Shown one piece after another: positions 58,649 through 59,547 of a stretch of 64,000 nucleotides of DNA. Origin of the DNA: an uncultured Aquimarina sp. (GTDB lineage: Bacteria > Bacteroidota > Bacteroidia > Flavobacteriales > Flavobacteriaceae); contig CANNBP010000013.1 of assembly GCA_947502885.1 (NCBI GenBank), positions 89,049-153,048 on the forward strand. The letters are read 5' to 3'. Position numbers and translations under genes: made by a program. The notes beneath the pieces were generated by a model. The model did no database searches. It was not told the DNA's origin and was given only the letters and a program-made list of their open reading frames with translations. Numbering within the stretch: the first letter of the stretch is position 1; the number at the start of each line of letters is the position of its first letter.

Positions 58649-58688
58649 AAAAAAAAGCCATAGGATACCTAATTAACCTACGACTTTT
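58649..58688 (-). terminator. Terminator closing the micro-ORF unit
   Basis: Minus strand AAAAGTCGTAGG...CCTATGGCTTTT stem (with G-U pairs) followed by a T8 tract. Confidence 0.7.
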
Positions 58689-58743
58689 AACACACTCAAC
58701 ATAAAATTGTTTCTATTATCCCTTAATAAAGGGGGGCAAGTTG

Positions 58744-58890
58744 TTATCGTTCTACATCATAAACGTATCGTTTTCTTCTAATAGGGTTGTGATCTCCATA
58801 GTTATATACATTTATAGTTTCGTCTATTAACATACGCTGCCGTTGCAAAATGCTTTTTATTTTTTTTCTATGTTTTTTTAAGATCTTCAT
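58744..58890 (-). CDS. Putative 48-aa basic small protein (not in ORF track)
   Basis: MKILKKHRKKIKSILQRQRMLIDETINVYNYGDHNPIRRKRYVYDVER*; preceded by the same CATCAATCAA spacer as the duplicated micro-ORF. Confidence 0.45.
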   Translation of the reverse strand: MKILKKHRKKIKSILQRQRMLIDETINVYNYGDHNPIRRKRYVYDVER

Positions 58891-58975
58891 AACGATTCGT
58901 TTTTTGATTGATGATTTCGATTGATTGATGATTTTACGTTTAAATCGAGAAATTAAAATTTAAACGAGATATAAC

Positions 58976-59062
58976 TTATCTGTATCTTCTCTTGGTATTC
59001 CAAATATATCCTTTTGTACTATTAAGTTTTTGGGTTAATTGGTTGCTGTTTAAAGTTCTCAT
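58976..59062 (-). CDS. 28-aa basic micropeptide, copy 1 (not in ORF track)
   Basis: MRTLNSNQLTQKLNSTKGYIWNTKRRYR*; A-rich upstream region AAAAAATAAATT-ATG. Confidence 0.7.
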   Translation of the reverse strand: MRTLNSNQLTQKLNSTKGYIWNTKRRYR

Positions 59063-59139
59063 AATTTATTTTTTTTTGATTGATGTTTTTGATTGATGGG
59101 TATCTTTTATGTTTAAATTAAAATTTAAACGAGATTATC

Positions 59140-59226
59140 TTATCTGTATCTCCTCTTGGTATTCCAAATGTATCCTTTTGTACTACTAAGTTTTTGAGTC
59201 AATTGGTTGCTGTTTAAAGTTCTCAT
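59140..59226 (-). CDS. 28-aa basic micropeptide, copy 2 (not in ORF track)
   Basis: MRTLNSNQLTQKLSSTKGYIWNTKRRYR*; 5 differences from copy 1, of which 4 are synonymous. Confidence 0.7.
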   Translation of the reverse strand: MRTLNSNQLTQKLSSTKGYIWNTKRRYR

Positions 59227-59547
59227 AATTTATGTTTTTTAATTGATTATTTACCTAATAGACGCGAAGGTTTGATTTTTGTTACAGTACTATGTATAAA
59301 AAGGTACTATTTTAACGTTTTTTAACAATTTAAGGTGTGAAAAACTGTAAAATACTTGGTTTTTTAGATTTTGATTTGAATTTATAGGTCTAAATAAGAG
59401 GGGGTTACATTTATCGAACTTTTTGTAATCCTAAATTCTTTTTTAAAGATGATCGATAATAAAATAACTATAGATCTATATTCAATTATTATTTAATCAG
59501 ACTTAGGTTCCCAAAATCATTTGATTTAAGAACTAGTATTAAACAGA

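Follow-up and report, generated by a model that had tools for sequence, protein, structure and literature searches.

A Micropeptide Operon in an Apparent Intergenic Gap

We analyzed a 64,000-nucleotide (nt) stretch of the genome of an uncultured Aquimarina sp. of the Flavobacteriaceae (contig CANNBP010000013.1, positions 89,049 to 153,048), referred to below as the window. Its minus strand carries a 0.9-kb unit that contains two tandem genes for 28-amino acid (aa) cationic peptides (A-type), a third and longer open reading frame (ORF) for a second peptide type (B-type), a conserved upstream element, and a terminator. This unit is a free-standing small-protein operon overlooked by gene callers. 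A preliminary description of the window had reported two 28-aa minus-strand ORFs in an apparent intergenic gap, and we located both, each with an ATG start. The unit comprises the following features, given in the direction of reading; the promoter elements are a probable assignment to the extracytoplasmic function (ECF) sigma factor type.

59328-59287, minus strand: conserved upstream block, TTGTTAA-N4-CGTTAAAATAGTAC-N12-TAGTAC, abutting the -35 element
59286-59281, minus strand: TGTAAC, probable -35 element of an ECF-sigma-type promoter
59280-59265, minus strand: promoter spacer, 16 nt
59264-59259, minus strand: CGTCTA, probable -10 element of the ECF-sigma-type promoter
59226-59140, minus strand: A-type gene copy 1, ATG ORF of 28 aa, MRTLNSNQLTQKLSSTKGYIWNTKRRYR
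59139-59063, minus strand: A-rich spacer between the A-type copies, with a CATCAATCAAAAA-type start context and a weak A/U hairpin
59062-58976, minus strand: A-type gene copy 2, ATG ORF of 28 aa, with the sequence of copy 1 except for ...LNSTKGY...
58890-58744, minus strand: B-type gene (ORF3), 48 aa, MKILKKHRKKIKSILQRQRMLIDETINVYNYGDHNPIRRKRYVYDVER, the last gene of the operon
58688-58645, minus strand: intrinsic terminator, a 12-bp stem (58688-58653) followed by a U8 run, which ends the unit

The peptide encoded by copy 1 has a computed mass of 3.4 kDa, an isoelectric point (pI) of 11.6, and a net charge of +7. Unmodified, the three products of the unit would have masses of approximately 3.44, 3.47, and 6.06 kDa. 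As stated in the preliminary description, the two copies differ at five nucleotides, of which four are synonymous (TTG/TTA, ACT/ACC, TAC/TAT, and AGG/AGA) and one replaces a residue (AGT/AAT, S14N). This amounts to 4 differences over 15 synonymous sites versus 1 over 69 nonsynonymous sites (Nei-Gojobori; Fisher p = 0.003). The repeated unit exceeds the ORFs, spanning 105 nt at 93% identity. The window alignment also bears out the indels ascribed to the flanking spacers, with both ORFs intact, and the A-rich start contexts are seen before each. The third ORF and the terminator reported to follow are present as well, and the third ORF is itself a member of the conserved B-type family. Folding computations place the terminator stem within a 116-nt fold of -26.3 kcal/mol.

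The 28-aa Peptides Form a Conserved Family

A DNA search of relatives recovered the locus at approximately 70% identity in most Aquimarina genomes, always as tandem arrays, and every homologue found reads as a 28-aa ORF. We then built an A-type profile from 23 variants. It matches 155 of 401 Flavobacteriaceae genomes and 118 of 302 genera, including Algibacter, Winogradskyella, Bizionia, Ulvibacter, Hyunsoonleella, Seonamhaeicola, Flavivirga, Zunongwangia, Marixanthomonas, and Patiriisocius. Outside the family, the 388 genomes contained in a class-wide sample of 400 were free of matches, save for one weak partial match.

The statistics of the family rest on approximately 290 copies gathered from 108 loci. 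Exactly 28 aa with an ATG start are found in 261 of these copies and 29 aa in a further 20; a handful of copies are visibly decayed. Entropy is highest at the third codon position (0.99, versus 0.58 and 0.55 at the first and second), and the pooled ratio of nonsynonymous to synonymous substitution rates (dN/dS) is 0.19 in frame versus 1.73 and 0.79 in the other two frames, in line with the purifying selection that had been proposed from the window copies. The residues M1, R2, T3, L4, N7, W21, N22, K24, R25, and R26 are invariant or nearly so, position 27 is Tyr or Phe (138 and 36 of 176 variants, respectively), and position 28 is Arg or Lys. Position 17 is Lys in only 116 of the 176 variants and otherwise Asn, Ile, Arg, Thr, or His.

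The decayed A-type copies (loci L020, L048, L063, L023, and L099) include N-terminal truncations (KHIKMKNQISKK...), one 7-residue insertion, and one frameshifted tail. Their presence within arrays indicates copy turnover.

A-type peptides are strongly hydrophilic and basic, with a grand average of hydropathy (GRAVY) of -1.46, a net charge of +6.3, a pI of 11.4, and no Cys. Their mean Eisenberg hydrophobicity is -0.48 and their maximum 11-residue helical moment 0.42; they have no signal peptide and no hydrophobic or amphipathic segment, and they look unstructured. They match no Pfam or NCBIfam family, and a profile search of the PDB returned nothing better than E = 0.8, which rules out the proteins of the Flavobacterium johnsoniae ribosome. 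Ten exact A-type sequences were absent from a collection of approximately 15 billion predicted proteins, and a full-text literature search with peptide strings and topic words returned nothing relevant. The 28-aa A-type peptides have never been called as genes, and the family is unannotated and undescribed.

A Second, Longer Peptide Closes Most Arrays

In almost every locus, an ORF of 43-50 aa lies 20-100 nt past the last A-type copy. These B-type ORFs follow the pattern M(R/K)T(L/I)xNI(R/K)K(R)LK...QKQNxFL...Y(N/D)YE(D)...KRYA(Y/H), which ORF3 of the window fits. A B-type hidden Markov model (HMM) match occurs at most 200 nt from 71 of 94 non-redundant arrays and closes these arrays, so that about a quarter of arrays are without a recognizable B; the only two matches farther off lie approximately 0.5-0.7 kb from the query A-type copy. 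The B-type dN/dS is 0.17 in frame and approximately 1.0 off frame.

When compared with 1.84 billion representative proteins, the B-type profile matched 61 clusters, nearly all of 43-50 aa and none fused to a larger domain. B-type peptides have no Pfam, NCBIfam, or PDB match, and annotated members carry only the label "hypothetical protein"; as scattered entries of this kind is the sole way in which the family is known. Given the family alignment, AlphaFold2 models residues 2-32 as a helix that is followed by an unstructured tail, with a predicted local distance difference test score (pLDDT) of approximately 90 over the first 20 residues. The helix is long, amphipathic, and basic, and the tail ends in KRY.

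The two peptide types share both termini. Each begins with MRTLxN, and the C-terminal module reads (I/V)WNxKRRY(R) in A and (L/V)(W/F)xGxKRY(A)(H/Y) in B. For this reason, the two resemble paralogues, A being the short form and B the long one.

Several other short ORFs occur near B. In some genera, an ORF of 22-23 aa (MKALNKIVNKTTTWQNDLNNLK and similar) replaces B (loci L024, L030, L106, and L109) and is possibly a third peptide type. At L004, L009, L014, L017, L018, L045, and other loci, an ORF of 21-24 aa in another frame (MKETLLPEIKDT..., MKILCSPELSATH...) overlaps the 3' end of B. It starts at an ATG formed by the conserved Y-(D/E) codons of B and is probably a by-product of B conservation and not a gene. 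Short metagenomic contigs carrying B were considered as possible transcripts; they were metagenome DNA and uninformative.

The 29-nt leader and start codon of ORF3 (AATCATCAATCAAAAAACGAATCGTTATG; window 58916-58888, minus strand) recurs in this genome (G000) with at most 5 mismatches, on contigs C3, C4, C7, and C11. Of five sites, four open membrane-protein genes (MLQKSKSK..., MLNKQASK..., MMSQQFSK...) and the fifth has no ORF. The leader is also recurrent across many other Aquimarina genomes, and it looks like a common translation-initiation leader of a paralogous gene family.

Arrays Are Free-Standing and Variable in Copy Number

Among the 94 non-redundant arrays, 12 contain one A-type copy, 40 two, 18 three, 15 four, 8 five, and 1 six. 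The copies are separated by A-rich spacers (median 46 nt), often with CATCAATCAAAAA before the ATG. Across 137 spacers, the mean minimum free energy is -1.1 kcal/mol (mean z = 0.03), and they are therefore unstructured. The hairpin between the two window copies was considered as a conserved processing or attenuation element and rejected; given the unstructured spacers of other genomes, it is a local feature.

Copies within one array are 89% identical at the nucleotide level versus 72.5% across loci. Single-base codon differences within arrays fall at positions 3, 2, and 1 in 1008, 245, and 194 cases, respectively, and this third-position bias implies that each copy is individually constrained.

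The nearest neighbor is on the opposite strand upstream in 54 of 78 loci and downstream in 49 of 77. Elsewhere, the flanking genes include a methyltransferase with a fatty-acid hydroxylase, CcoN with NrfD, a helicase, an M19 dipeptidase, and ExbD; the flanking families are housekeeping genes that differ between species and genera. No conserved neighbor was found across 78 loci from many genera, and the largest cluster (27 loci) reflects clade-level synteny. Because the flanking genes vary and mostly lie on the opposite strand, the unit stands alone, as the preliminary description had proposed from the terminators of the window.

The small size of these ORFs and the absence of annotation would suit a repeated non-coding element or RNA gene in which the reading frames arise by chance. 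This explanation is effectively refuted: two independent ORF families each show selection tied to the coding frame, 261 copies across 118 genera keep their length, start, and stop, and the spacers, which lack structure, have diverged freely. With a permissive E-value, Rfam yielded nothing beyond chance matches on the terminator of a neighboring gene. We are almost certain that the arrays represent a real, conserved coding operon.

A Probable ECF-Sigma-Type Promoter Precedes the Arrays

Nearly all arrays, whatever the genus, have one conserved element before their first copy. Aligned over 86 regions upstream of non-redundant arrays, drawn from many genera, it reads GTTAA-N4-TGTTAAAATA(G)TAC-N-TT-N3-AT-N-CATAGTACTGTAAC, followed by 16 variable nt, CGTCTA, and N4-GTATA. 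GTAAC is invariant in all 86 promoters and CGTCT is kept in 84-85. The spacer between these blocks is 16 nt in 66 of 76 cases, with nine scored as 13 nt and one as 14 nt; the nine are probably instances in which the pattern caught an earlier CGTC. The distance from CGTC to the ATG has a median of 34.5 nt (interquartile range 33-36), and the predicted 5' untranslated region is unstructured. A spacer that is constant in length but not in sequence, set between two invariant blocks, is the signature of a promoter and not of an RNA helix.

In its classic form, an ECF-sigma promoter carries AAC in the -35 element and CGT in the -10 element. The sigma-X and sigma-W promoters of Bacillus subtilis are of the type TGTAAC/TGAAAC-N16-17-CGAC/CGTA, and the array element is similar in that its -35 ends in AAC, its -10 starts with CGT, and 16 nt lie between the two. 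On this basis, we consider it likely that the arrays are preceded by an ECF-sigma-type promoter; in the window, transcription would start at approximately 59253 on the minus strand.

Conservation extends upstream of the -35 element over a block of approximately 40 nt. Its columns are near-invariant, with GTTAA direct repeats and a dyad, AGTAC-N13-GTACT, that touches the -35 element; the positions directly after GTAAC are A-rich. The block is probably a site for an additional regulator or a UP-type element. In this genome and five complete genomes, the extended motif was found only before arrays.

The housekeeping promoter of Bacteroidota has the form -33 TTG/-7 TAnnTTTG, and such a promoter could instead lie within the upstream block, in which case CATAGTACTGTAAC...CGTCTA would make up a conserved 5' leader to which RNA or protein binds. 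TTG-N19-TACCTTTT does occur inside the conserved block, and conservation that extends upstream of a -35 element is unusual for a plain ECF promoter. However, the -7 look-alike is off consensus and shifts register between genera, the fixed 16-nt variable spacer between invariant blocks is itself a promoter signature, the identical core and spacing stand before ECF sigma genes, and there is no Rfam match. We regard this arrangement as unlikely and the weaker of the two explanations. The preliminary description had overlooked the conserved ECF-type promoter, along with the family-wide distribution of the peptides and the resemblance between A and the third ORF.

A Candidate Sigma Factor

TGTAAC-N16/17-CGTC is found in this genome before two ECF sigma genes, both confirmed by Pfam, and before a gene for a TonB-dependent receptor. 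The N16 form lies 45 nt before a gene for a 169-aa sigma factor and the N17 form before that for a 195-aa sigma factor; both proteins contain Sigma70_r2 and r4_2 domains. No other of the approximately 40 sigma-like ORFs in the genome is preceded by GTAAC and then CGTC at such spacing. The first of the two sigma genes is the candidate of interest.

G000 C3:25288-25794, minus strand: 169-aa ECF sigma gene, GFO_1088/PG0214-type

Against NF058625, the "GFO_1088 family ECF-type sigma factor" model that takes its name from PG0214, the 169-aa protein reaches 225.6 bits (equivalog cut-off 130). Of the 401 Flavobacteriaceae genomes, 360 carry a single copy, at 65-73% identity. On the 3' side of its gene lie a candidate anti-sigma factor, with one predicted transmembrane segment and no Pfam match, and then two DUF4252 proteins. 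The promoter of the sigma gene itself, TGTAACAAAA-N12-CGTC, is present in 13 of 14 genera sampled; in its fuller form, it reads TGTAACAAAA-N12-CGTCGTAAT and is accompanied by a conserved upstream block (...CTAAATTTACTTACATTATTGT...) in the same proportion of genera. An A-rich stretch after GTAAC is common to this promoter and the array promoters.

Because the sigma factor's own promoter shares sequence and spacing with the array promoter, the array operon may belong to the regulon of the GFO_1088/PG0214-type sigma factor, an assignment in which our confidence falls a little below even. In Porphyromonas gingivalis, expression of the PG0214-0218 cluster drops in regulator mutants studied under nitric-oxide stress (PMC11018363). 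We found no published promoter motif or regulon for the GFO_1088/PG0214 sigma family in the literature. Among 20 listed genomes that lack the sigma factor, one (a fragmented assembly) has the peptide, versus 39% of genomes overall, a comparison confounded by phylogeny and genome size.

Two ECF-type promoters, AAAATGTTAAAA-N12-TGTAAC-N16-CGTCTTAT, were seen on contig C10 of this genome (G000) at reverse-strand positions 33748 and 36595, 2.8 kb apart. One of them lies upstream of the gene for an 800-aa TonB-dependent receptor.

Surroundings of the Unit in This Genome

Upstream of the unit, a minus-strand gene (63192-59599) encodes a 1197-aa secreted protein with GEVED, fn3, and type IX secretion system (T9SS) tail features, and ends in a terminator of its own (59580-59547). 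This protein has a zinc-metalloprotease-like HExxH motif, two fn3 and two GEVED domains, and a T9SS C-terminal sorting domain. Downstream lies a fasciclin lipoprotein gene (58456-57860; Pfam). The array is absent at 13 orthologous fasciclin loci of other Aquimarina genomes, and its position on the chromosome varies between Aquimarina species.

A pair of direct repeats, identical at 22 of 23 positions (96%), flanks the entire unit from promoter to terminator.

59519-59541: left copy of the 23-nt direct repeat, TAATACTAGTTCTTAAATCAAAT as read on the minus strand
58616-58638: right copy of the 23-nt direct repeat, just past the terminator of the unit

The repeats suggest a local insertion or duplication event. 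They were also considered as a general sign of a mobile cassette, a proposal we rejected since they were seen only in this genome and weakly in one other.

Possible Roles of the A and B Peptides

The mechanism that we infer, including the identity of the sigma factor, the inducing signal, the cytoplasmic location, and the target, is that of a stress-induced, dosage-amplified operon for cytoplasmic polycations under ECF sigma control. The single dedicated promoter (59328-59259, minus strand) would produce a polycistronic mRNA with n A-type copies, one B, and the terminator. It would be read by the GFO_1088/PG0214-type sigma factor once this is freed by an envelope or oxidative-type stress signal, and a second regulator would bind the conserved 40-nt block upstream of the -35 element. 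Tandem amplification would raise the dose of the A peptide, and A and B would be used unmodified in the cytoplasm. There, the A tail, W21-N22-x-K24-R25-R26-Y/F-R, echoed in B as W/F-x-G-x-KRY, may bind an abundant polyanion, most plausibly RNA or the ribosome, with DNA or polyphosphate as alternatives, and B may act as a helical partner of A. As a whole, this reading of the sequences is plausible, although it stops just short of being probable. The cytoplasmic polyanion-binding role taken separately is more tentative and on balance unlikely to be correct in its present form. A stronger version, in which A and B are the main dedicated output of the GFO_1088/PG0214 sigma system and act on the translation or transcription machinery through the tail, is more doubtful still.

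Several observations weigh against this reading. Being near-universal, the candidate sigma factor also occurs in most genomes that lack the peptide, which makes its distribution uninformative. In one genus, the two promoters do not co-vary: that of the sigma gene has TGTTAC and that of the array TGTAAC. The TACyTT(T/G)T that is conserved upstream of CATAGTAC weakly resembles the housekeeping TAnnTTTG element. On the side of the target, the PDB search revealed no similarity between A-type peptides and the chains of solved ribosomes. We also considered whether the peptides mimic the C-terminus of bS21 and rejected this, as the local bS21 tail is unrelated. Finally, the absence of maturases and exporters discussed below covers four protein families in five genomes.

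We also rejected two other assignments. A small ribosomal protein does not fit a family with no homology to ribosome chains, 1-6 copies per array, and a presence in 155 of 401 genomes that is not near-universal. An attenuation or leader peptide does not fit a unit in which the terminator follows the last small ORF and the downstream neighbor is unrelated and on the opposite strand in 49 of 77 loci.

Other possible explanations would have the peptides modified, exported, or opposed to each other. The preliminary description had raised a ribosomally synthesized and post-translationally modified peptide (RiPP) precursor modified in trans; here, both A and B would be precursors, MRTLxN the leader, and the conserved W, N, K, R, and Y residues the sites modified by an unlinked enzyme. 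Tandem multi-copy small genes with a conserved N-terminal stretch and a C-terminal motif would suit such precursors, as would the KxxxW-like and RRY motifs of the window copies, and precursors distant from their maturase are a known arrangement, the prochlorosin precursors lying far from ProcM. The absence of a linked maturase in 78 loci, where the one large cluster is clade-level synteny, speaks against this proposal, as does a search of five A-bearing genomes (three small, at 2.2-2.3 Mb, and two complete or nearly so) that returned 0 matches to SPASM, YcaO, and C39 peptidase families with positive controls (for SPASM, in 8 reference genomes); LanC-like proteins were also not matched in these genomes, but the control search for them was blank as well. 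Lys17 and Tyr27, on which the RiPP-like motifs depend, vary among variants as given above, and the lack of Cys argues against YcaO- or lanthipeptide-type products in particular. The copies in an array are near-identical and not diversified. Since RiPP-like motifs vary and array copies are homogenized, both RiPP and bacteriocin assignments are disfavored, and we consider the former improbable.

Secretion of unmodified antimicrobial or signaling peptides in the style of leaderless bacteriocins, released through an unlinked exporter, outer-membrane vesicles, or lysis, would likewise account for tandem genes encoding small, cationic, Trp-containing peptides without a leader, and a stress-type promoter would suit a competition response. 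The hydrophilicity and low helical moment of the peptides weaken this explanation and, with it, the membrane-active antimicrobial suggested previously. None of the genomic contexts has a linked transporter or immunity gene, no C39-type exporter occurs in the five genomes, and the homogenized copies give no hint of the diversifying selection of an arms race; it is hence quite improbable. A toxin/antidote or effector/modulator pair, in which A inhibits growth and B neutralizes or targets A, or the reverse, could explain the strict linkage of two different small proteins within a single operon, in which B invariably comes at the end, and the long amphipathic basic helix of B could be a binding partner. 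Yet A and B are both basic and resemble paralogues with shared termini more than a complementary pair, roughly a quarter of arrays have no recognizable B and some have the 22-aa ORF in its place, and neither carries a hydrophobic segment like that of type I toxins, all of which makes such a pair very unlikely. Among the roles that the preliminary description had listed, nucleic-acid or ribosome binding appears to fit best.

Relation to Known Systems and Significance

Small stress-regulated proteins behind ECF promoters are known; the architecture described here is new. Compared with known ECF regulons and the PG0214-PG0218 cluster (PMC11018363), the putative target is a micropeptide operon with an additional 40-nt block that is found nowhere else in the genomes checked. 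Leaderless bacteriocins such as aureocin A70 and enterocin L50 are similar in their tandem genes and in their cationic, Trp-containing peptides of approximately 30 aa without leaders, but they are hydrophobic or amphipathic and are accompanied by ATP-binding cassette (ABC) exporter and immunity genes, whereas the A-type peptides are strongly hydrophilic and none of these genes is linked to them or universally present. Aureocin A70 consists of four tandem peptides. Streptide (KxxxW), ryptide (Arg-Tyr), and the prochlorosins share with the arrays short multi-copy peptides, and the window copies contain K-G-Y-I-W and R-R-Y. W21 is invariant but, in contrast to streptide, Lys17 is not conserved, and no radical S-adenosylmethionine (SAM)/SPASM gene lies near any of the 78 loci; in the case of ryptide, R25 and R26 are invariant while residue 27 is Tyr in 138 of 176 variants and Phe in 36.

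The small ribosomal proteins bL36, bS22, bL37, and Flavobacterium bL38 are similarly small (24-40 aa) and extremely basic, and they, too, have no hydrophobic core. A-type genes differ from them in being multi-copy, present in approximately 40% of genera, preceded by a stress-type promoter, and located outside ribosomal operons. The orphan families that emerge from surveys of small ORFs also fall below gene-caller cut-offs and are seen through conservation and dN/dS; here, there are in addition a dedicated promoter, two peptide types that look paralogous in fixed order, tandem amplification, and a sharp taxonomic boundary.

These results reveal two linked small-protein families across more than 100 genera of the marine, ecologically important Flavobacteriaceae that are invisible to standard annotation. 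The array promoter offers a first testable motif and target for a near-universal, uncharacterized Bacteroidota ECF sigma system. Should A and B prove to be the output of this sigma factor, they would provide the first promoter motif and regulon member for the GFO_1088/PG0214 family, and they would constitute a new class of stress-induced, gene-amplified polycationic micropeptides. Translation initiation is atypical in Bacteroidota, and if the peptides bind ribosomes or RNA, they would represent a new type of stress effector.

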